Source of the DNA: Acidobacteriota bacterium
GTDB taxonomy: Bacteria; Acidobacteriota; UBA4820; DSQY01
Reading direction: 5' to 3'
DNA length: 64,000 nucleotides
Assembly (NCBI GenBank): GCA_049967655.1
Contig: JBMFSH010000002.1
Location: 1 to 64,000 of the forward strand
Part shown: piece after piece, positions 23,209-37,654 of the stretch
Position numbering within the stretch: position 1 is the first letter of the stretch
Layout: each line of letters starts with the position of its first letter
The notes under the pieces: generated by a model
Seen by the model: only the letters and a program-made list of their open reading frames with translations
Told to the model about the DNA's origin: nothing
The model's database searches: none
Translations under genes and position numbers: made by a program

Positions 23209-23267
23209 GTCGCCGGCCGGCCGCGCCCCAGCCGGGGGTGACGCCGGATGAAAGGAGGCTTGTCGTG

Positions 23268-23744
23268 ATGAGAATGAAGAGGCTTCTCCTGGCCGCGCTT
23301 TTCATCGTGAGCTGCCCGGTCTTGGCCCAAGAGACCTTCGTGCTGGTGGGCCCGGCGGTGGGCAACGTGCAAAACAAGAAGCGGCACCTCTACGGTTCGG
23401 TAGAGCTCCGCCACCTCTTTCATTCTTGGGGGAAGCTCTCTTGGGGGGGCGGTGGCGTGGTGGAATCCAGCTCTCTTGAGAACTACGAGGGGCTCAATCT
23501 GACCCTTCAGTACGCTTTTTCAGACCGCTGGAGCGCCTCGCTGACCTCCGGTCCCGGCCGCTATTCGGATCACCACTACGACCTGGGGAGCCACCTGGAG
23601 TTCCGTTCGGGTCTGGAGCTGTTTTACCATCTCGGCAAGGGGTGCCGTCTGGGGGTCGGGGTCTTCCACTACTCGAACGGCGGCGTGGCACGCCACAACC
23701 CCGGCACGGAATCGGTCCGTGTGGCCCTTGTGATACCCTTATAG
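23268..23744 (+). CDS. Lipid A 3-O-deacylase PagL-like beta-barrel (acyloxyacyl hydrolase family)
   Basis: Signal peptide, LGSHLEFRSGLE and C-terminal HYSNGG...NPGTES motif. RBS AGGAGG. Confidence 0.8.
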   Translation: MRMKRLLLAALFIVSCPVLAQETFVLVGPAVGNVQNKKRHLYGSVELRHLFHSWGKLSWGGGGVVESSSLENYEGLNLTLQYAFSDRWSASLTSGPGRYSDHHYDLGSHLEFRSGLELFYHLGKGCRLGVGVFHYSNGGVARHNPGTESVRVALVIPL

Positions 23745-26564: not shown

Positions 26565-26666
26565 GGGAGGGACGCGAATCCGAGGGGCGTGCCCGGCGGG
26601 AGGGCGCCGAACGCGGCTTCGCCCACAGGGCGGGGGTGTGCTAGGGTAGGGAGCGGAGGTACCACC

Positions 26667-27005
26667 ATGGCAGCATTGCAGCGCCCCCCCATCTCGGTCT
26701 TGATCGCCCATACCGAAGGTTGCGGCCACACGCCGGCCACTCGCGAGCTTGTGGAACGCGTGGCGGCCGAACTCTCGTTGCCCATCGAACTGAAGATGAC
26801 CCTCGTGCGGACGGACGAGGAGGCCCGCCGCTACCAGCTTCACGGCAGTCCCACCGTCCTCGTGAACGGCCAGGACGTGGACCCCGCCATGCGGGGCCGC
26901 ACGGACTACGGGTTCACCTGAAGGCTCTACGGGGCATCGGGCATGCCCTCGAAGGAGCTCGTAACCAGGGCCCTGCTCGAGGCGGCGGGCGGCGGCGGGC
27001 GGTAA
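26667..27005 (+). CDS. Small thioredoxin-fold putative selenoprotein (Sec at UGA 26919-26921)
   Basis: ATG 26667 after GGAGG. GC motif, GSPTVLVNGQD, then YGFT-(UGA)-RLYG...GMPSKELVTRAL continuing in frame to TAA 27003-27005. Related Cys-containing domains, as I recall them, read xCRLY...GAPS. Confidence 0.8.
26924..26958 (+). promoter_or_regulatory. Bacterial SECIS-like hairpin
   Basis: Upper stem GGGGCAT/ATGCCCT with loop CGGGC starting 16 nt after the UGA; lower stem GCTCT/GGAGC. Confidence 0.65.
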
Positions 27006-27203: not shown

Positions 27204-27776
27204 ATGAAAAAGCTCGTCATCGCCGCATTGGTCCTCATGACGGCCAGCCTTGGCCTCATGGCGCAAACGCCGAAGAACCCCTGGACGTGGGAGTTGCAGG
27301 GCGGCTACTACACCTCCAGCAACTTCATGGACAGCGACTGGAACGCGAGCACGGGCATCGCCTACAACTTCACCGACAACTGGAAGCTCGCCTTCCACGC
27401 CACCTACTGGGACGGCAAGGTGAAAGACAGCCTGAACAGCACCACCAACAACATCTGGACCTTCACCATCGCCCCCGAGTACGACTACAACCTGACCGAC
27501 AAGGACCAGTTCTTCGTCTTCGTCGGTGCGGGCGTGGCCGACTTACAGTCGAAGGATTACTGGATCCGTGACAGCGGCCGTTTGCTTTACGTCCATCAGC
27601 CCTCGCAAACCAAGTGGGCCGGCGAGGTGGGTTTCGGCTACCGGCGCTTCTTCACGCCGAATGTAGGCATGTCCTTCCAGCTCACCTACACCCACATGGG
27701 TTTCGATTCCGTCCGTTACGTGAGCGACAAGACGGACATCGGCGACGCGCGCATCGGCCTGGTGGTGCGTTTCTGA
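27204..27776 (+). CDS. Small outer-membrane beta-barrel protein
   Basis: Signal peptide, alternating aromatic strands, terminal Phe (GLVVRF). RBS AGGAGG. Confidence 0.85.
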   Translation: MKKLVIAALVLMTASLGLMAQTPKNPWTWELQGGYYTSSNFMDSDWNASTGIAYNFTDNWKLAFHATYWDGKVKDSLNSTTNNIWTFTIAPEYDYNLTDKDQFFVFVGAGVADLQSKDYWIRDSGRLLYVHQPSQTKWAGEVGFGYRRFFTPNVGMSFQLTYTHMGFDSVRYVSDKTDIGDARIGLVVRF

Positions 27777-28019: not shown

Positions 28020-28279
28020 CCCAAATTCCGCGATGGAAACGCGGGTGCCTCCGGCCACCGCTCGGGTTCACGGGGGAAAGGCATTATCTCCTGGACGGGG
28101 AGGGCCATTCCCTCCCCGCTCCACGGGCTAAGCCCGTGGAGCCTCACCCTACCCTTGGTGCCCTCTCGCCTTTGGCTCGAGGGCGCCCCAATCCCTTGAT
28201 AGGTGACGTGGGCCTCTTCTTCAATGGCTTGCCCCGCCAACTTTCCATGCTCTTTCCCCCGTTCCATCGCGGGATTGGG
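28020..28279 (-). mobile_element. 260-bp MITE-like element with 6-bp target-site duplication
   Basis: Imperfect terminal inverted repeats CCCAAATTCCGCGATGGAAACG / CGTTCCATCGCGGGATTGGG, flanked by GATCGG on both sides (28014-28019, 28280-28285). Colinear without indels with 55698-55957. Confidence 0.88.
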
Positions 28280-28293
28280 GATCGGTGCCGACC

Positions 28294-28322
28294 TTGACTT
28301 TATATTCGGATATCCGAATAAT
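28294..28322 (+). promoter_or_regulatory. sigma70 promoter with overlapping ArsR-type operator
   Basis: TTGACT-N17-AATAAT; perfect palindrome TATTCGGATATCCGAATA at 28303-28320. Confidence 0.75.
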
Positions 28323-28340
28323 TGGATTCTTGGAGGGAAT

Positions 28341-28664
28341 GTGGCCGAATCGCTCGCTGCGCAAGCCAGATTATTTCGAGACCTGGGTCATCCTCTGCGC
28401 CTGAGGATCCTCTGCCTTCTGGCGCGGGAGGGCCGGCAGTGTTCGTGCCGCATGCTGCCCGAGCTCAAGGTGCCCCAGCCGACCCTCGCCCGGCACCTGA
28501 CCATCTTGCGGGATCACGGGCTCATCGCGGACGAGCGCGAGGGGACCATGGTCTTCTATCGGATCGCGGACGAAAACGCGCGGGCCGTGCTTCGCGCCGC
28601 CGGACTCCCCTGCGCCGGCGGCAGCGCCCCGTCGAAGAGAACGACCAAGAGGAGGAACCGATGA
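28341..28664 (+). CDS. ArsR/SmtB family repressor
   Basis: GTG start after GGAGG; LGHPLRLRIL, CSC, QPTLARHL, REGTMVFY. Confidence 0.88.
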   Translation: MAESLAAQARLFRDLGHPLRLRILCLLAREGRQCSCRMLPELKVPQPTLARHLTILRDHGLIADEREGTMVFYRIADENARAVLRAAGLPCAGGSAPSKRTTKRRNR

Positions 28665-29083
28665 TGAGGAGAGTCGTCGCGGGTGCCGTGTTCGTGTCTT
28701 TGATCCTGGTGTCGGTGTGGGTTATCGCCGGAGCTCGGGGCGGGAAGGCGACGCCTCCGCCGGAGGAGACGACCGCCGGGAAGCCGGCGGACTCCCGGGC
28801 CCTTCCCCGGATGGTGGATCTGGGCAAGACGTGGTGCATCCCGTGCAAGCAGATGGTGGCGGTCCTCCAGGAGGCCGAGCTCCGCTACAAGGGCAAGGCG
28901 GTCATCGAATTCATCGACCTGGACAAGAAGCCGGAGGCGGCCCAGGAGTACAAGATCATGATGATCCCCACCCAGATCTTTTTCACCGCCGACGGGAAGG
29001 AGTTCGAACGTCACGTGGGCTACCTGCCCTTCGAGGAGGTGGAGAAGATCTTCACCAAGATGGGCGTCGAGCGGGCCCACTGA
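28661..29083 (+). CDS. Membrane-anchored/exported thioredoxin
   Basis: N-terminal hydrophobic segment, WCIPC, IPTQIFF...GKE..RHVG. Confidence 0.88.
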   Translation: MMRRVVAGAVFVSLILVSVWVIAGARGGKATPPPEETTAGKPADSRALPRMVDLGKTWCIPCKQMVAVLQEAELRYKGKAVIEFIDLDKKPEAAQEYKIMMIPTQIFFTADGKEFERHVGYLPFEEVEKIFTKMGVERAH

Positions 29084-29787
29084 TGGAACAGCTCCTGAGC
29101 CAGTTCGGCAGCCTCATCGAGACGGCGCCCCTGCTCGCCTTCGGGGCGGCCTTCCTGGGCGGACTCCTGACCGCGAGCAACCCGTGCGTGCTCGTGAGCA
29201 TCCCCCTGGTCCTGGCGTACGTGGGGGGAAGCCAGCAGGCCACCTCGATCCGGCGATCCCTGCTGTACGCCCTGTCGATGGTGGCCGGCCTGGCTCTCAC
29301 CTTCACCGCGCTGGGGCTCGCCGCGGCCCTGCTGGGCCGCCTCTTCGGCCTCCAGGGGCGCTTCTGGCCCTACCTCATCGGGGGAGTCTGCCTCGTGATG
29401 GGGCTCCACATGCTGGGTTGGCTTCCACTTCGAATCGGCTTTTCAATGCCCTTCCGGCCCCAGAGCAAGGGTGCGCTGGGCGCCTTTTTCCTCGGGATTC
29501 TCTTCGGGCTCATCTCGACCCCCTGCGCGGTGCCCATCCTGGCCGTGCTCCTGGCCTTCATCGCCGCCAAGGGAAGCGTCCTCTACGGGGGAAGCCTGTT
29601 GCTGACCTACGCCCTGGGCCACTGCACGCTGGTGCTCCTGGCGGGCGTCTCCATGGGAGCGGTGAGGGGGCTGCTGTCAAGCCGCCGGTGGGCGAGCGCC
29701 AACCTCTGGCTGCGCCGCGGAGCCGGGGCGCTGATCCTGGCCCTTGGCCTGTACGTCATCGGGGCGCCCCTGATGGGGGGAGCCTGA
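29083..29787 (+). CDS. CcdA/DsbD-type thiol-disulfide transmembrane transporter
   Basis: NPCVL and TPCAVPIL Pro-Cys motifs, six TM helices. Confidence 0.88.
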   Translation: MEQLLSQFGSLIETAPLLAFGAAFLGGLLTASNPCVLVSIPLVLAYVGGSQQATSIRRSLLYALSMVAGLALTFTALGLAAALLGRLFGLQGRFWPYLIGGVCLVMGLHMLGWLPLRIGFSMPFRPQSKGALGAFFLGILFGLISTPCAVPILAVLLAFIAAKGSVLYGGSLLLTYALGHCTLVLLAGVSMGAVRGLLSSRRWASANLWLRRGAGALILALGLYVIGAPLMGGA

Positions 29788-29812
29788 TCTCATCGAAGAA
29801 AGGAGTGCATTC

Positions 29813-30064
29813 ATGAATCTCGACATACGCATCGCCGCTCCCGGCTGCCGCAATTGCCAGGAGCTGGAATCCAGGGTGATTAAGGCCCTGGAGGAGCTCC
29901 AGGCGGAGGCCACGGTCGTGAAGGTGACCGACTTCAAAGACATCGCCGCCTTGGGCATCTTCATGACCCCCGGCCTCATCATCAACGGCAAGGCCGTCCT
30001 CCAGGGCAAGCTGCCCAGCGTGGGGATCGTGAAGGAGCTGATCCTGGAGGCCATGAGATCGTGA
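29813..30064 (+). CDS. Small redox-active disulfide protein (MTH895-like thioredoxin)
   Basis: PGCRNC, VVKVTD, MTPGLIINGK...GKLPS. Confidence 0.88.
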   Translation: MNLDIRIAAPGCRNCQELESRVIKALEELQAEATVVKVTDFKDIAALGIFMTPGLIINGKAVLQGKLPSVGIVKELILEAMRS

Positions 30065-30780
30065 GCCGGCGAACCCTGCGGACGTTTCTCGCGCGGGCGG
30101 CCCTTCTCCTGGGTGCCTCCATCGTGGCGGGCCATGCCTGGGCAGCGGCCCAAGGCGTGGTCAACTTTGCGCCCTTGACGGCGAAGGTCTCCTCGCGGGT
30201 CCTTGTTCGCGTGCTGGACACCGAGTCGAGCCTTGGCCCCATGTCGCAAAGGCCGCAGACGGTGACGCTGGCGGATCTGGTGCGGTTCCACGGGCATCCG
30301 TGCGACGGACTGATCGCCGCGGCGGAGGGCATCACCCTGGGGCTCAAGAGGCTCTTCCCGGACGGGATCGTGGACCGCACCGACGTGGCCGCCGCCACGA
30401 ACGCCTCGCCCTGTTACTCCGACGCGGCGGCCTACTTGACCGGGGCCCGGACCCTCTACGGAACCCTGGTGATCGACAGGAACCTCGGCGACGAATGGAT
30501 TCTCGCGCGGCGCTCCACGGGCGAGGCCGTCATGGTGCGCCTCAAGCCCGGCGTCAAGCCGGCCGACCTGCCGGCCATGGAGAAGACATTGAGGGCCGCC
30601 GGGTGCGACGGACCGCTCATCGTCCGGGTGCAGGGACTTCAACTGACGTTCATCCATCGGCTGCTCTCCGCGCCGCCCGGTTCTCTCTACGAGGTAACCG
30701 AGCTGCCTGCCTTCCCCTACCCCGTGACGGGAGAAAGGCCGGATGCGGCCAAGGCGCGGTGCGGCGACCGGGGACGCTGA
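30061..30780 (+). CDS. FmdE family protein with N-terminal signal peptide
   Basis: Arg-rich/hydrophobic leader ending AHAWA; FHGHPCDGL and SPCYSDAAAYLTGAR. Confidence 0.75.
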   Translation: MSRRTLRTFLARAALLLGASIVAGHAWAAAQGVVNFAPLTAKVSSRVLVRVLDTESSLGPMSQRPQTVTLADLVRFHGHPCDGLIAAAEGITLGLKRLFPDGIVDRTDVAAATNASPCYSDAAAYLTGARTLYGTLVIDRNLGDEWILARRSTGEAVMVRLKPGVKPADLPAMEKTLRAAGCDGPLIVRVQGLQLTFIHRLLSAPPGSLYEVTELPAFPYPVTGERPDAAKARCGDRGR

Positions 30781-30793
30781 GAAAGGACAGGAA

Positions 30794-31894
30794 GTGAAAG
30801 CTCAAGAACTACCCGCCGAACCATCGGGCGTAACGGAAACCGAACCCCCCCGCGAGACCTCTTCCCAGAGAAATAGGGGCCTGGGTCGCTACCTTCTCGC
30901 CGGCCTCCCCGCGCTGGCCACCTGGATCGCCCTCTACTGGGTCCTGGAGCCCTTTTCCAAATGGGTGACCTTTAATCTGGCGGGCCTGACCGAGAGCTCG
31001 CGGCTCGGGATGGCGGTGCAGTTCTTCCTTTTTGAGGCCCCCAAGGTTCTCATGCTCCTCCTGCTCGTGGTCTTCGGCGTGGGCATCCTCCGCAGCTTCT
31101 TCACGCCGGAGCGCACCCGGCGCATCCTGGCCGGCAAGCGGGAGTCGGCGGGGAACGTGCTCGCGGCCCTCCTGGGAGTGCCCACGCCCTTCTGCTCCTG
31201 CTCCGCGGTGCCGCTCTTCATCGGTTTCGTGACGGCGGGCGTTCCCCTGGGCGTGACGCTCTCCTTCCTCGTGGCCTCGCCCATGGTGAACGAGGTGGCC
31301 CTCGTCCTCCTCTTCGGCCTCTTCGGCTGGAAGGTGGCGGCTATCTACGCCAGTACTGGCCTCATCATCGCCATCTTCGCGGGCTTCGTCATCGGCAGGT
31401 TGAAGCTGGAGGGGTGGGTGGAGGAGTGGGTCTACGCCACGTCGGCCGGGGCGGGGATGGGCGGCGAGGAGCAGATCGGCTGGGCCGACCGCGTCGGCGC
31501 CGGCCTGCAGGCGGTGAGGGAGATTGTAGGCCGGGTCTGGCCCTACGTCCTCGCGGGCATCGCCGTAGGGGCGGGCATCCACGGCTACGTTCCGACCAAC
31601 GCCATGGCGCACCTGATGGGAAAGAGCGCCTGGTGGGCCGTGCCCGCGGCCGTGCTCGTCGGAGTCCCCATGTACTCCAACGCAGCCGGCATCATCCCCA
31701 TCGTCCAGGCCCTCATGGAGAAGGGCGCGGCGCTGGGAACGGTGCTGGCCTTCATGATGGCCGTCATCGGCCTGAGTCTGCCCGAGGCCGTCATCCTTCG
31801 AAAGGTCCTCAAGCCCAAGCTCATCGCCGTCTACTTCGGCGTCGTCGCCATCGGAATCCTCGCGGTGGGATACTTGTTCAACATGATCTTCTAG
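30794..31894 (+). CDS. ArsP/DUF318 family permease
   Basis: TPFCSCSAVPLF, SFLVASPMVNE, GVPMYSNAAG, AFMMAVIGLSLPE. Confidence 0.9.
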   Translation: MKAQELPAEPSGVTETEPPRETSSQRNRGLGRYLLAGLPALATWIALYWVLEPFSKWVTFNLAGLTESSRLGMAVQFFLFEAPKVLMLLLLVVFGVGILRSFFTPERTRRILAGKRESAGNVLAALLGVPTPFCSCSAVPLFIGFVTAGVPLGVTLSFLVASPMVNEVALVLLFGLFGWKVAAIYASTGLIIAIFAGFVIGRLKLEGWVEEWVYATSAGAGMGGEEQIGWADRVGAGLQAVREIVGRVWPYVLAGIAVGAGIHGYVPTNAMAHLMGKSAWWAVPAAVLVGVPMYSNAAGIIPIVQALMEKGAALGTVLAFMMAVIGLSLPEAVILRKVLKPKLIAVYFGVVAIGILAVGYLFNMIF

Positions 31895-32161: not shown

Positions 32162-32644
32162 ATGCGTGTCGCCAGAGCCTGCCTGATCGCCGCGTTTCTG
32201 GCCCTGTCATTGCCGGCCCTTGCCCAACAGAGCACTTTCCTCATGATCGGACCGGGCCTGGCCAATTTTCGGCACCACACCCACTACGGTTATGGCTCCG
32301 TGGAGGCCCGCCACCTCTTTCATTCGTGGGGAAAATTGTCCATTGGTTTCGGCGGGGCCCTGGAGGTGAGCCGCAACGAAGACTATGTGGGGCCCAACCT
32401 GACCCTGGACTACCACTTTGCCCCCCACTGGGGGGCCTCCCTGACCTCCGGCCCTGGTTGGTATTCGAACCATTCCTTCAACCTGGGAAGCCATCTGGAG
32501 TTTCGCTCGGGGCTGGAGTTTTTCTACTTCTTCCACGGGAATTGGCGGATCGCCGCGGGGATATTTCACTATTCCAACGCCGGCGTGGCCTCACACAACC
32601 CGGGGACGGAGTCGGTGCGGCTCGCCATCGTGATCCCGCTCTGA
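32162..32644 (+). CDS. PagL-like beta-barrel, paralog of 23268-23744
   Basis: Shares YGSVE.RHLFHSWGKLS, LGSHLEFRSGLE and HYSN.G..HNPGTESVR with the first copy. Confidence 0.8.
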   Translation: MRVARACLIAAFLALSLPALAQQSTFLMIGPGLANFRHHTHYGYGSVEARHLFHSWGKLSIGFGGALEVSRNEDYVGPNLTLDYHFAPHWGASLTSGPGWYSNHSFNLGSHLEFRSGLEFFYFFHGNWRIAAGIFHYSNAGVASHNPGTESVRLAIVIPL

Positions 32645-33370: not shown

Positions 33371-33540
33371 GCCCCCTCTCCGAACGGAGGCCCGCTTGCC
33401 ACCGAGCTTGGCCCCGCACCCTCCAGTCCTGTACCGCCTACCATCACCCGCCCGCCCATGTGCTCCGCGAAATGAACCATGTTATCATCGAAACACTCCA
33501 CAGACGGTACCTTCGAGGTTTGAGGACAATGGGGGCGACC

Positions 33541-34077
33541 ATGAAGAGAGTATGGCTGTTGGCGGTTTTGGTGCTGACCGGATCGAGCGTGCTGCGGGCG
33601 CAGGAGCCGCTCCATCGCTGGACGTGGGAGCTTCAGGGCGGCTACAACACGTCGAGCGGCTGGGTGGACAGCGGCTGGATGGCCCAGACCGGGATCGGTT
33701 ACGCCTGGACGGACCACTTTTCGGTGGTGCTTCACGGGGCTTACTACCAGGGAAACCTGAAGGGGATATCCGGCTCCAACGCCCTCTACACCTTCACCCT
33801 GGCGCCGGAGCTGAGGAGATCGGTGTCAGCCCACGGGGAGGTGTACGTCTTCCTGGGCGCGGGCGTAGCGGGAACCTACAGCTACTATTGGGGACGGGGG
33901 TGGCGACAAATCCACATCCCATCGCAGACCAAGTGGGCTGGTGAGGCGGGCATCGGCTACCGGCATTTCTTCAGCCGCCGGGTGGGGATGAGCTTCCAGG
34001 TGACCTACACGCACATGGCCTTCGATCCGAGCGTCGATGTGGGAGATGGCCGATTCGGCTTGGTGGTTCGCTTCTAG
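33541..34077 (+). CDS. Small outer-membrane beta-barrel protein, paralog of 27204-27776
   Basis: Shares WTWELQGGY, PSQTKWAGE.G.GYR, MSFQ.TYTHM and GLVVRF. Confidence 0.83.
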   Translation: MKRVWLLAVLVLTGSSVLRAQEPLHRWTWELQGGYNTSSGWVDSGWMAQTGIGYAWTDHFSVVLHGAYYQGNLKGISGSNALYTFTLAPELRRSVSAHGEVYVFLGAGVAGTYSYYWGRGWRQIHIPSQTKWAGEAGIGYRHFFSRRVGMSFQVTYTHMAFDPSVDVGDGRFGLVVRF

Positions 34078-34090
34078 GGCGCCTATCTCC

Positions 34091-34675
34091 TCACGATTCG
34101 TCGGCCTGAAGATCCGATGTCAGCTCCCGGCGGAGGGCCGCCTGGACCTCCACCTCGGCGGGGCAGAAGGGGTGCGTGGTCCCGATGTGCAGGGCCTCTC
34201 CGGCGAGAAAGCGGCGGAGGAACGAGGGTGTGAGCGTCCAGGTGAGGTAGTGGACCGTGCTGGTGTAATCCTCGCGGCTTCGCCCCTCTTCGCCCACGGC
34301 CCGGATCCGGTCATCCCCGATGCGCGCGTAGAAGGAGTGTTCGACGCCGGGCAGCTTGGGGAGGGCGGCCTTGAGGCGCGCCTCGTCCGGGATCTCGATG
34401 TAGAGCGTGGTCTTCCATTGGTTGGGGCCGGGGATGAGGGGGCTGTAGGCGTCGATCTCCCCCTGGATGGCCGCCTCCTCCACCATGCGCTCGGCGCGCG
34501 CCATCTCCTGGATCTGGTACCAAACCGTCCGGCGGTTCTCGAAGAGCAGGGTGAGGATTTCGTTCACCGGCAGCCGCCGGTTCACCTTCATAGCCATCAC
34601 CTCGCCCCGGAGCTCCTTGCGGCGCTTCTCGTATTGGGTCAGGTCCAGGATGTCCGACAACTCGAGCCTCTTCAT
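34091..34675 (-). CDS. DUF3501 family protein
   Basis: YEKRR...LFENRRTVWYQIQEMARAE...EIDAY.PLIP, STVHYL. Typical partner of rubrerythrin and FeS oxidoreductase genes. Confidence 0.85.
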   Translation of the reverse strand: MKRLELSDILDLTQYEKRRKELRGEVMAMKVNRRLPVNEILTLLFENRRTVWYQIQEMARAERMVEEAAIQGEIDAYSPLIPGPNQWKTTLYIEIPDEARLKAALPKLPGVEHSFYARIGDDRIRAVGEEGRSREDYTSTVHYLTWTLTPSFLRRFLAGEALHIGTTHPFCPAEVEVQAALRRELTSDLQADES

Positions 34676-34757
34676 GCGTTCTCCTCAATAAGCCGACGGG
34701 AGCAGGGAATCGGGGGCCGCTGGGCCGGCGGCGCTCCCCCTCTGCCCGTGGGCCGGA

Positions 34758-36056
34758 TCAGTCGTTGGCAGTGACGACGATGCCGTAGGCCCTGGCCAGC
34801 AGGACCACGGGGTGAACGGCCTGTCGTCCGGTGGCGTGGTCGATCTGGAGGGCGGAGAGGGGGCACTCGGTGGCGATGTGGCCTTCCGCGTCCCTCACCT
34901 TGTTGAAGAGTTTGCGGCCCACCTTCATGGAAGCCTCGTATGTCCCGGTGCGGATGCCGTAGGTGCCGTCGTGACCCGAGCAGGCATCCAGGACCTTCAC
35001 GGTGGTGCCGGGAATGTCGCGAAGCAGGTCGCGCCCCTTAAACCCGACGCCCATCTGTTTGAGGTGGCACGGGAGGTGATAGGCCACCTCACCGAGGGGC
35101 GAAGGTTGCGAGGCCGGCCAGAGGCCCCTGGCCTTCAGGTCGGCCAGGTAGTCGAAGAGGTCCCGGGTGGCTGCGGCCACCGCCTTGGCCGCCTCACCCG
35201 CGACGAGGAGCGGGTATTCGGTGGCCAGCGCCATGGCGCAGGAGGAGACGGGAGCCACGATCGCCAGCCCCTGCTTGGCGTACGGGTAGAGCAGGGCCAC
35301 GTTCTTTCGCGCCTTGGCGGCCGACGTCTCGATGTCGCCGATGTCGAAGGAGGGAATGCCGCAGCACTCCTGGCCGGAAGGCAGGAGGACCTCCACCCCG
35401 CAGGCCGCGAGAAATGCGACGAGAGCCTCGCCCAGGCCCGGGTAATTCCCGTCCACCAGGCAGGTCGTGAAAAGGACCACCCGTTCGCGCGGCTCGGAGG
35501 GCTTGGCCATCTTCCGGAAACGGGAGGTGAAGGAGTGGGAGGCAACGGGCGGAAGCGGCGCCTCCGGGTGAATCCCGAGAAAGGCCGACATCAATCTGCG
35601 GGCGGGCTTCGAGCGGTTGACCGCGTTGGCGAGGGGCGCAACGGGCCGGGACTTGCGCGTCATTCCGGCGGGGTCGGCGAGGAGGCGGCCGGAGAAGCTC
35701 GATCCCCGCTTCTTGAATTGAACGGCCTTGTGGCGAAGGGCGAGGTGCGGGAAATCCAGCCGGAACTCGTGGGGCGGGGTGTAGGGGCACTTGGTGTAGC
35801 AGAGCTTGCAGTAGTAGCAGGCATCCATGACCGCGTGGAGGTCGTCGCCGGAAAGCTCCGCGGCCGAGATGTCCCTGGAGTCGATGCGGTCGAAGAGAAT
35901 GTCAAAGGAAGGACAGAGGCCGGCGCAGAGCCTGCATCCGTGGCAGACCTCGAAGATGCGCCGCTCCTCCTCGGCGAGCGATGCCTCGTCGTAGAACTCC
36001 GGCGAGGCCGGATCGAAGACGTACTCCTTGATGCCGCCAAGGCCCTGTCCGCTCAT
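34758..36056 (-). CDS. Fe-S oxidoreductase (GlpC/HdrD-like, rubrerythrin-associated)
   Basis: CHGCRLCAGLC and CYYCKLCYTKCP ferredoxin motifs; CCG domains (ECCGIP, CSGHDG, ECPLS). Confidence 0.9.
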   Translation of the reverse strand: MSGQGLGGIKEYVFDPASPEFYDEASLAEEERRIFEVCHGCRLCAGLCPSFDILFDRIDSRDISAAELSGDDLHAVMDACYYCKLCYTKCPYTPPHEFRLDFPHLALRHKAVQFKKRGSSFSGRLLADPAGMTRKSRPVAPLANAVNRSKPARRLMSAFLGIHPEAPLPPVASHSFTSRFRKMAKPSEPRERVVLFTTCLVDGNYPGLGEALVAFLAACGVEVLLPSGQECCGIPSFDIGDIETSAAKARKNVALLYPYAKQGLAIVAPVSSCAMALATEYPLLVAGEAAKAVAAATRDLFDYLADLKARGLWPASQPSPLGEVAYHLPCHLKQMGVGFKGRDLLRDIPGTTVKVLDACSGHDGTYGIRTGTYEASMKVGRKLFNKVRDAEGHIATECPLSALQIDHATGRQAVHPVVLLARAYGIVVTAND

Positions 36057-36281
36057 CTTGAACCCCCTTTTCTCGAGTCCCTTCGCCCGGATTCTCGTCG
36101 CACCACGGCTACGCAACGACCCTCCCGCAACATGCACCAAGGGTCCCCTTCGAAGAGTCCCTGCCAGCGGCTGCCCGCCCGCTCGCCCCATGAGAAATGG
36201 AGCCCGCCCGGCGGGATTCCCCGTTGGCTGCCCTTCGAAGGGGCCCTCGGGATAGGGGAAGGGCGGCGTTGCGCCCTTCCC

Positions 36282-36701
<420 letters not shown>

Positions 36702-36702
36702 G

Positions 36703-37113
36703 TTACACCTCCTTGGAAAAGGGGTTGGGGGCCGCGGCGCAGGAGGCGCAGCAGCCTTTGATGGTGACCTCTCTGGCCTGCGGTTCAAAGCCCGCCGGCA
36801 TGGGCAGGTCCCACCGGGTGTTGGGGCCGAGGGGCATGTCCCATACGCGCTGGCAATGTGTACACGTCACATGGTAGTGGGGTTTCAGGTTCGCGTCAAA
36901 CCGGTCCGGACCCTCATCCAGCCGCAGTCGCCGCACGTGTCCCGAGGCCACGAGGATGTCGAGGTTGCGGTAGAGGTTCGACAGACTCACGCGGCCGTAC
37001 TCGGCGGCCATGCGCTTGGCCACCTCGGCGGCGGTGGGGTGTTCTTCCGTCGACATGAGCAGATCGAGGAGACGCTGGCGCTGGCCGCTTCGCCCCTTAA
37101 TGTTCGGAATCAT
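36703..37113 (-). CDS. Fur family regulator (PerR-like)
   Basis: HPTAAEV, SLSNLYRNL, RFDANLKPHYHVTCTHC, C-terminal CASC. Confidence 0.88.
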   Translation of the reverse strand: MIPNIKGRSGQRQRLLDLLMSTEEHPTAAEVAKRMAAEYGRVSLSNLYRNLDILVASGHVRRLRLDEGPDRFDANLKPHYHVTCTHCQRVWDMPLGPNTRWDLPMPAGFEPQAREVTIKGCCASCAAAPNPFSKEV

Positions 37114-37160
37114 TCCGCTAGCTCCTTCGACAATGTAGGGCCGCCTCGGGGAGCCGTCAA
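37100..37160 (-). promoter_or_regulatory. sigma70 promoter and Fur/PerR-like operator of the perR gene
   Basis: TTGACG-N17-TACATT on the minus strand (37160-37132). Dyad CGGAAT-C-ATTCCG at the start codon. Confidence 0.6.
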
Positions 37161-37168
37161 GTCCGATC

Positions 37169-37654
37169 TCAGGAGGTGCTGCCTTCGAGGGTCGCGCGGA
37201 GCATCCAGGCCATCTTCTCGTGGCTCTCCATGAGCCCCGTCAGGAAGTCCGCCGTGCCCGCATCACCGTGCTCGTCGGCGCAGAGGTCCACGTCCTTCCG
37301 GAGCTGGCGGATCAGCGCCTCGTGGTCGTGCAGGAGCAGGCCGACCATGTCGGCGGCCGGCGGAGCGGAGCCGGGTTTCTCCGTGAGCCGGGAGTGCTCG
37401 ACGAACTCCCGCAGGGAGCCGAGGCTCCTGCCTCCCAGTTGCCGGACTCGCTCGGCGAGGTCGTCCACGGCCTCGTCCAGGGTTCCGATCTGTTCGCCGA
37501 AGAGCAAGTGGTAATCGCGGAAATGCGGTCCGGTGACGTTCCAGTGGAAGCCGCGCGTCTTGGCGGCCAGCACGTATTCGTCCGAAAGCAGCCGGTTTAA
37601 CATGAGTCCGACCGCCTCTCTGCTTTTGTCCTTCAGTCCGATCTCTGTGGGCAT
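37169..37654 (-). CDS. dps: Dps DNA-protection ferritin-like protein
   Basis: FHWNVTGPHF...H..F, DDLAERVRQLGG, D.GTAD, EKMAWML. Confidence 0.95.
   Translation of the reverse strand: MPTEIGLKDKSREAVGLMLNRLLSDEYVLAAKTRGFHWNVTGPHFRDYHLLFGEQIGTLDEAVDDLAERVRQLGGRSLGSLREFVEHSRLTEKPGSAPPAADMVGLLLHDHEALIRQLRKDVDLCADEHGDAGTADFLTGLMESHEKMAWMLRATLEGSTS

Follow-up and report, generated by a model that had tools for sequence, protein, structure and literature searches.

A probable C-terminal selenocysteine site in a DF-family thioredoxin-fold protein of an Acidobacteriota bacterium

A small gene on contig JBMFSH010000002.1 of an Acidobacteriota bacterium begins with an ATG at 26667 on the forward strand, and its open reading frame under translation table 11 ends at a TGA at 26919-26921. 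Positions are those of the window, meaning the whole 64,000-nucleotide stretch that was analysed. A sequence-only reading had proposed that the frame runs on beyond this TGA, that the UGA is decoded as selenocysteine (Sec), and that standard gene callers would cut the protein short. The locus raises the question of whether the TGA is a stop or the Sec codon of a hidden selenoprotein and, if the latter, what such a protein might do.

Reading frame and selenocysteine machinery

The frame does continue past the TGA, which lies in frame at codon 85, and translating the UGA as Sec gives a product of 112 amino acids with Sec at position 85 (U85). The tail after the UGA, RLYGASGMPSKELVTRALLEAAGGGGR, ends at a TAA at 27003-27005. 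The 112-residue product contains GSPTVLVNGQDVDP together with the N-terminal EGC that had been pointed out as a possible redox partner and that includes Cys19. Its overall layout is EGC19GHT near the N-terminus, GSPT at 60-63 and YGFT-U85-RLYGASGMP; codon 19 is TGC, so the N-terminal site is Cys and not UGA. Truncation by annotation was rightly anticipated, as entry P0002 of the protein collection is an 84-residue form of this DF-family product. The features of the locus are the following.

26655..26659, + strand: Shine-Dalgarno-like GGAGG, 7 nt before the ATG, recognised by sequence and of putative function
26667..27005, + strand: gene for a predicted 112-aa DF-family (NF049942) thioredoxin-fold selenoprotein, made by UGA read-through
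26721..26723, + strand: Cys19 (C-G-H-T), aligned through 1fo5 with the leading Cys of the thioredoxin CxxC
26844..26855, + strand: G-S-P-T motif, with Pro62 aligned to the thioredoxin cis-proline (alignment and relatives)
26919..26921, + strand: in-frame TGA, predicted Sec85
26923..26959, + strand: bSECIS-like hairpin, with the upper stem GGCAU/AUGCC kept and the apical loop CGGGN at 26938-26942

A scan for promoters and terminators detected no sigma-70 site and no terminator 3' of the gene. When the window was compared with contigs from four DNA runs, none of the differences listed fell at 26919-21. A sequencing error as the source of the TGA is rejected because the TGA is conserved in homologs.

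The genome that carries the gene is 99% complete and encodes all four components of the Sec machinery, each over its cut-off: selA (460 bits), selB (309 bits), selC, the tRNA-Sec with a TCA anticodon (72.8 bits), and selD (343 bits), the last with an in-frame TGA of its own. A long open frame around selA that could have been taken for a fusion was rejected, as the upstream part is open sequence overlapping another ORF. The tRNA-Sec, which scores over the Rfam cut-off, is the only TCA-anticodon tRNA found in this genome. In addition, TGA is the commonest stop, closing 801 of 1266 long ORFs, and a general reassignment of UGA is therefore rejected. At least two sel genes were detected in all four of the other TGA-bearing genomes that were checked: selA, C and D in G067, where the search covered these three; selA, B, C and D in G478; selB and D in G330, which is 67% complete and in which selA and selC were not found; and selB and C in G401, in which selA and selD were not found. 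Two selD copies are present in G478 (C80:83531-84457 and C84:35377-36300), each with an in-frame TGA. Another candidate selenoprotein of the Acidobacteriota genome itself is a match resembling pyridine-nucleotide oxidoreductases, with one in-frame TGA, at C3:18448-18981.

Conservation of the UGA column and of the hairpin behind it

The 112-residue product matches the NCBIfam model NF049942, "DF family (seleno)protein", with 94.8 bits against a cut-off of 70, over residues 13-102 and profile positions 3-96 of 96. The truncated 84-residue form scores 71.2 bits, so that the 28-residue tail contributes 23.6 bits. Columns were counted in the best 150 of 1366 representatives, and at the UGA column 116 of these have Cys, as the sequence-only reading had proposed, with homology continuing beyond it. 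Another 28 end exactly one residue earlier, as known from protein sequence alone with their stop codons not seen. The remaining six comprise three Trp, one Leu, one Gly and a spurious repeat-protein match (P0022) that was rejected as a homolog. Within the same best 150, Cys occupies column 19 in 141, Pro62 is present in 146 and D70 in all 150, and at column 22 H, T, Y and A predominate. Both conserved Cys/Sec columns of the NF049942 family, and its GSPT..NG.D core, are thus present in the protein. Three of the representatives (P0019, P0080 and P0092) combine Trp at the Sec column with a Sec-type tail (YGASSM or YGGSGM), possibly reflecting a TGA translated as Trp by the gene caller.

At the DNA level, 33 of 401 genomes of the same phylum match the family model (26 of 401 in a protein-level search), and TGA was found at 3 of 34 places, in the Acidobacteriota genome itself, G330 and G067; an unpublished genome, G024, is counted only in these own-phylum tallies. 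In a second phylum, five of 88 genomes match the family, two of the five with TGA on the same column, and the same holds for four of five metagenome loci and one of two genome-contig loci. Because the aligned parts of L051, L052 and L060 translate into one identical protein, the distinct TGA-bearing sequences number seven, our own and six others, from loci of 39-68% GC. The pattern R-x-Y-G-x-S-G-M-P follows the UGA in all seven, down to 45% identity.

Could the TGA nevertheless be a true stop or a nonsense mutation, leaving an 84-residue protein or a pseudogene? TGA is after all the commonest stop of this genome, 28 database proteins among the best 150 of 1366 end here when judged from protein alone, and the copy in G067, of the same genus, is decayed at its 5' end. 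Against this stand the tail motif, kept in every TGA-bearing sequence, and the predicted fold, whose last helix (residues 96-111) the tail supplies. Furthermore, in the DNA seen, the stop is in every case TGA and lies on the conserved Cys column. We regard termination at this codon as very improbable. In the G067 copy (L025:1494-1740) the first ~33 residues, Cys19 among them, are missing, but the TGA and the SECIS are kept; it may be a remnant.

A quick tree of 152 rows and 76 columns, from which P0022, P0066, P0087 and P0089 were left out, places 25 of the 28 truncated proteins and all six of the TGA sequences it contains on one side of a branch. That branch has an SH-aLRT support of 35, and a single origin of the Sec form is therefore not established.

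RNA folding predicts that 26923-26959 forms a hairpin of two tiers (-18.8 kcal/mol), its apical loop being CGGGC at 26938-26942. A SECIS-like hairpin of two tiers with a G-containing loop had been proposed to begin 16 nt downstream of the UGA; its two tiers and its loop are borne out, but the hairpin begins 1 nt past the UGA and it is the apical loop that begins at 16. Applied as a loose model, the bSECIS criteria of a 2026 review (PMC13188914) agree with the loop CGGGC, the spacing of 16, the 6-bp stem and the energy of -18.8 kcal/mol. The same loose model is also passed by ordinary stops of this genome (TGA 85/250, TAG 70/250, TAA 41/131), and the folding energy is only modestly below that of shuffled sequence (z = -1.82, with 12 of 200 shuffles equally good), so we rejected hairpin energy as proof of Sec.

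Across the seven TGA-bearing sequences the upper stem is 89.8% paired, and the lower stem, 52% paired, is not conserved. No covariation was detected in the seven sequences, where one pair changed on both sides and 221 of 500 shuffles scored as high. Where the residue is the same, the codon is identical in 45 of 48 cases over codons +1 to +9 of the four closest sequences, compared with 112/198 upstream and 14/29 further downstream. Across the two groups of sequences the corresponding counts are 37/80, 44/210 and 10/57, and over all seven they are 97/150 for codons +1 to +9 versus 197/502 upstream; all of these counts compare related sequences, not independent ones. GCA, a rare codon that accounts for 3.1% of Ala codons in this genome, is kept in six of the seven. 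Judged from these alignments, silent codon positions are nearly frozen across the SECIS stem, a constraint that fits Sec. Contigs from other organisms, present in two metagenome runs, match the window at 26890-26967 only, the UGA-SECIS stretch, with both ends loose, which is in line with conservation of that stretch at the DNA level. A scan of viral contigs for the SECIS motif gave no matches.

Reading of the UGA as Cys, for which special tRNAs are known, or as Trp, found at this column in three of the best 150 of 1366 representatives and there perhaps a product of the gene caller, is the least probable account of all, given a tRNA-Sec as the sole TCA-anticodon tRNA found, TGA as the end of most long ORFs, and a SECIS-type constraint that fits Sec. 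We thus consider it very likely that UGA 26919 is read through as Sec. SelB would very likely bind the GGCAU-CGGGN-AUGCC hairpin and deliver Sec-tRNA to this UGA. Recoding of UGA with the help of a bSECIS is textbook knowledge, and no new mechanism is proposed. The gene is very likely a real, mis-annotated selenoprotein, as the sequence-only reading had held, with a tail that raises the family score and is kept with its TGA in distant homologs; its function is a matter of inference.

A probable second selenocysteine site in a predicted thioredoxin fold

The DF family takes its name from the "hypothetical protein DF" of Desulfosediminicola flagellatus, described with deep-Sep by Xiao and Zhang in 2025 (PMC12013277) and corresponding to NF049942. 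That paper describes a single DF sequence and no TGA-containing homologs, and the 2026 review gives a single Sec and no motif for DF (PMC13188914). The Acidobacteriota protein belongs to the same family as the D. flagellatus protein and shares its two conserved Cys columns, and Cys homologs are widespread. However, the printed D. flagellatus sequence carries its U where our protein has Cys19, and it breaks off after a further 65 residues, one position short of the U85 column; in our protein Cys19 likewise lies 65 residues ahead of the position just before U85, matching the printed length. The Acidobacteriota protein, in contrast, has Cys19 at the N-terminal site, carries its predicted Sec at the C-terminal one, and has many homologs with TGA. 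Since the published Sec falls on the Cys19 column and ours on column 85, U85 very likely marks, on the evidence of the aligned sequences, a second Sec site, and the protein would be a new form, set apart by the place of its Sec, within a family that already has a name.

In the literature on selenoproteins, mer and DUF2703, which we covered incompletely, no report of a C-terminal DF Sec site was found, and the DF terms looked for were absent from BSepDB (PMC13326102), in its main text and its one supplement. Because the NF049942 model spans both Cys columns, NCBIfam curators may already know of the C-terminal site.

AlphaFold2 was run with an alignment of 86 sequences and Cys in place of Sec, and gave a model with a mean pLDDT of 91. 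The top structural matches to this predicted model are mostly thioredoxins (Foldseek probability 1.0), the best having Z 8.8 and rmsd 2.8 over 83 aligned residues. The 112-residue product is therefore predicted to adopt a thioredoxin fold, in agreement with the sequence-only reading. Since residues 96-111, after the UGA, form the final helix of the model, the truncated form would be an incomplete fold. A search of PDB sequences returned only a weak match, 1fo5 (E 1.7e-4), in which Cys19 aligns to the first Cys of CPHC and Pro62 to the proline of VPT, the cis-Pro beside the active site.

Similar to thioredoxins of the MTH895/MJ0307 type (PF13192, TIGR00411/412, 1fo5), the protein thus has a predicted thioredoxin fold with its first Cys at the start of helix 1 and a Pro at the cis-Pro position. 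Unlike them, it has no CxxC, the second Cys being missing (C-G-H-T), and its second redox residue lies 66 positions away. It falls below the cut-offs of PF13192 (21.2 against 24.8) and TIGR00411 and has no match to DUF2703 (PF10865); among the 86 aligned relatives, 52 match PF13192 and 35 match DUF2703 at E<=0.01. A DUF2703 gene has been described in a Rhodococcus ars cluster (PMC6514093). The absence of CxxC also sets the protein apart from canonical thioredoxin and glutaredoxin, even though the predicted model has the thioredoxin fold.

Isolated beta-bridges occur in the model at 61 (Ser61), 85, 88 and 91. As the domain keeps only the first Cys of CxxC, the C-terminal loop would have to provide its redox partner, and a pairing of 61 with 85, if real, would set residue 85 beside the cis-Pro/Cys19 site, where thioredoxin binds its substrate; we consider these two steps, taken together, likely. 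Cys19 and Sec85 would then likely form one active-site pair, acting in redox chemistry or in metal(loid) binding.

Genomic context and a possible link to metal(loid)s

An association with metals is most evident from domain fusions among the relatives. Of the 56 representatives longer than 150 aa, 55 were scanned, and 32 of these carry MerT, HMA, MerB or MerC domains: 25 have MerT, mostly with HMA, two HMA only, four MerB and one MerC. The others have YHS (one), other domains (three) or nothing further (19). A link to alkylmercury lyase, as the sequence-only reading had put forward, is thus real in the four MerB fusions, but fusions with MerT/HMA are far commoner. The 300-aa MerT-HMA-DF fusion P0131 stops right at the Sec column and is a candidate mercury-transport selenoprotein cut short by annotation. 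By eye, two genome homologs (L030 and L037) run on into an ArsC/LMW-phosphatase-like domain. Also by eye, in four Cys-form fusions of 480-530 aa (L031, L036, L040 and L042) the DF domain leads into a Cys-rich domain, beyond which come a membrane segment and a tail with CxxC. Together, the Mer and ArsC-like fusions suggest an accessory role in metal(loid) detoxification.

Other selenoproteins with a heavy-metal link are the MerB-like SaoL, a putative mercuric transport protein and a MerT/CopZ selenoprotein (NF045683). Like the present protein, they have Sec at a conserved Cys and are routinely truncated in databases. They differ from it in fold and family, and our protein matches none of them.

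In the window, the gene is preceded by one of the MgtC/DUF4010 type; a chromate transporter lies to one side of it and, 1.2 kb downstream, an ArsR/ArsP cluster to the other. This cluster (28203-31894) runs in the order ArsR, exported Trx, DsbD-like membrane protein, MTH895/ArsE-like Trx, FmdE-like and ArsP permease, with the FmdE-like gene as an unexplained member. Similar pairs flank it, PagL-like at 23235-23744 and 32162-32644, and an outer-membrane beta-barrel at 27204-27776 and 33505-34077. On the reverse strand, 34091-37654 holds an oxidative-stress cluster of Dps/ferritin, Fur/PerR, rubrerythrin, an Fe-S CCG protein and DUF3501. The G067 homolog lies directly 3' of chromate transporter and PagL-like genes, and it looks as though a deletion there removed the lipase and MgtC/DUF4010 genes found between them in the window.

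Neighbours of the other Sec forms vary, from 35 of 53 candidate ORFs scanned: three of six loci have a chromate transporter, a CDF exporter or ArsR, and the rest have Crp/methyltransferase, XdhC/Fe-S or MFS/DUF362 genes. For the Cys forms, where 79 of 132 candidate ORFs were scanned, MerR, Mer, SBF or multicopper-oxidase genes occur at six of 12 loci and no metal gene at the other six. Four of 12 plasmid matches were examined; one follows merR-merB, two lie amid metal-resistance genes and one amid transposases. No MerA or HMA over cut-off was detected in our own genome, and tblastn gave no match for MerB, MerT, MerC or HMA, so that the gene is not part of a mer operon with detectable MerA, MerT, MerP or MerB. 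The placement of the gene in a metal(loid) cluster accordingly stands as nearness to metal(loid) genes, but not as a conserved neighbourhood or a mercury pathway.

Two functional readings can be set against each other. In the first, which we hold to be the better of the two at somewhat over even confidence, the protein is an accessory module whose Cys/Sec pair serves in redox chemistry or in metal(loid) binding. The targets that the Cys19/Sec85 pair binds or reduces would be thiols that are oxidised or blocked by metal(loid)s; the pair itself would close into a selenenylsulfide or take up soft metal(loid) ions. As mer genes were not found in this genome, its likely partners here would be the ArsR-Trx-DsbD-MTH895-ArsP cluster or other thiol proteins, and not a mercury pathway; the pair's chemistry, the accessory role and these partners share that same confidence as a whole. 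In the second, the protein is a true selenoprotein but a general thiol-disulfide oxidoreductase with no special metal link here, the Mer fusions being a specialised development within the Cys branch. The lack of detectable mer genes, the varying neighbours of the Sec forms, and the quick tree, in which most Sec-type sequences lie apart from the Cys forms that bear nearly all Mer fusions (SH-aLRT 35), all fit a general oxidoreductase. It is harder to reconcile with P0131, truncated and presumably of the Sec type yet fused to MerT-HMA, with the three of six Sec-form loci that adjoin metal(loid) genes, or with the position of our own copy between the chromate transporter and the ArsR/ArsP cluster. 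We consider a general oxidoreductase the less probable reading, but one with an appreciable share of the probability.

A bolder version of the accessory-module reading would hold that the C-terminal Sec forms are an uncatalogued, widespread subfamily, that the type DF protein is a two-Sec (diselenide) protein cut short at its second UGA, and that the domain is dedicated to trapping mercury and other soft metal(loid)s with a Cys/Sec or Sec/Sec pair. It would then supply MerT/MerP/MerB systems with the accessory module they lack, and its own C-terminal loop would occupy the groove in which a thioredoxin holds its substrate. Taken all together, we think this doubtful.

The accessory-module reading in its plainer form, and the probable read-through on which it builds, bear on the family in several ways. 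With 28 of the best 150 of 1366 representatives cut at the UGA column, the annotation error would be systematic. A family known in the papers found from one sequence without TGA homologs would gain a second Sec site, and by the convention of PMC13188914, under which different Sec positions define separate subfamilies, the C-terminal Sec form would be a subfamily of its own. The fusions to mercury and arsenic resistance proteins provide a lead to the function of a domain so far called "hypothetical". Finally, the protein is small and soluble and occurs naturally in both Cys/Cys and Cys/Sec forms, which may allow sulfur and selenium to be compared in metal(loid) binding.
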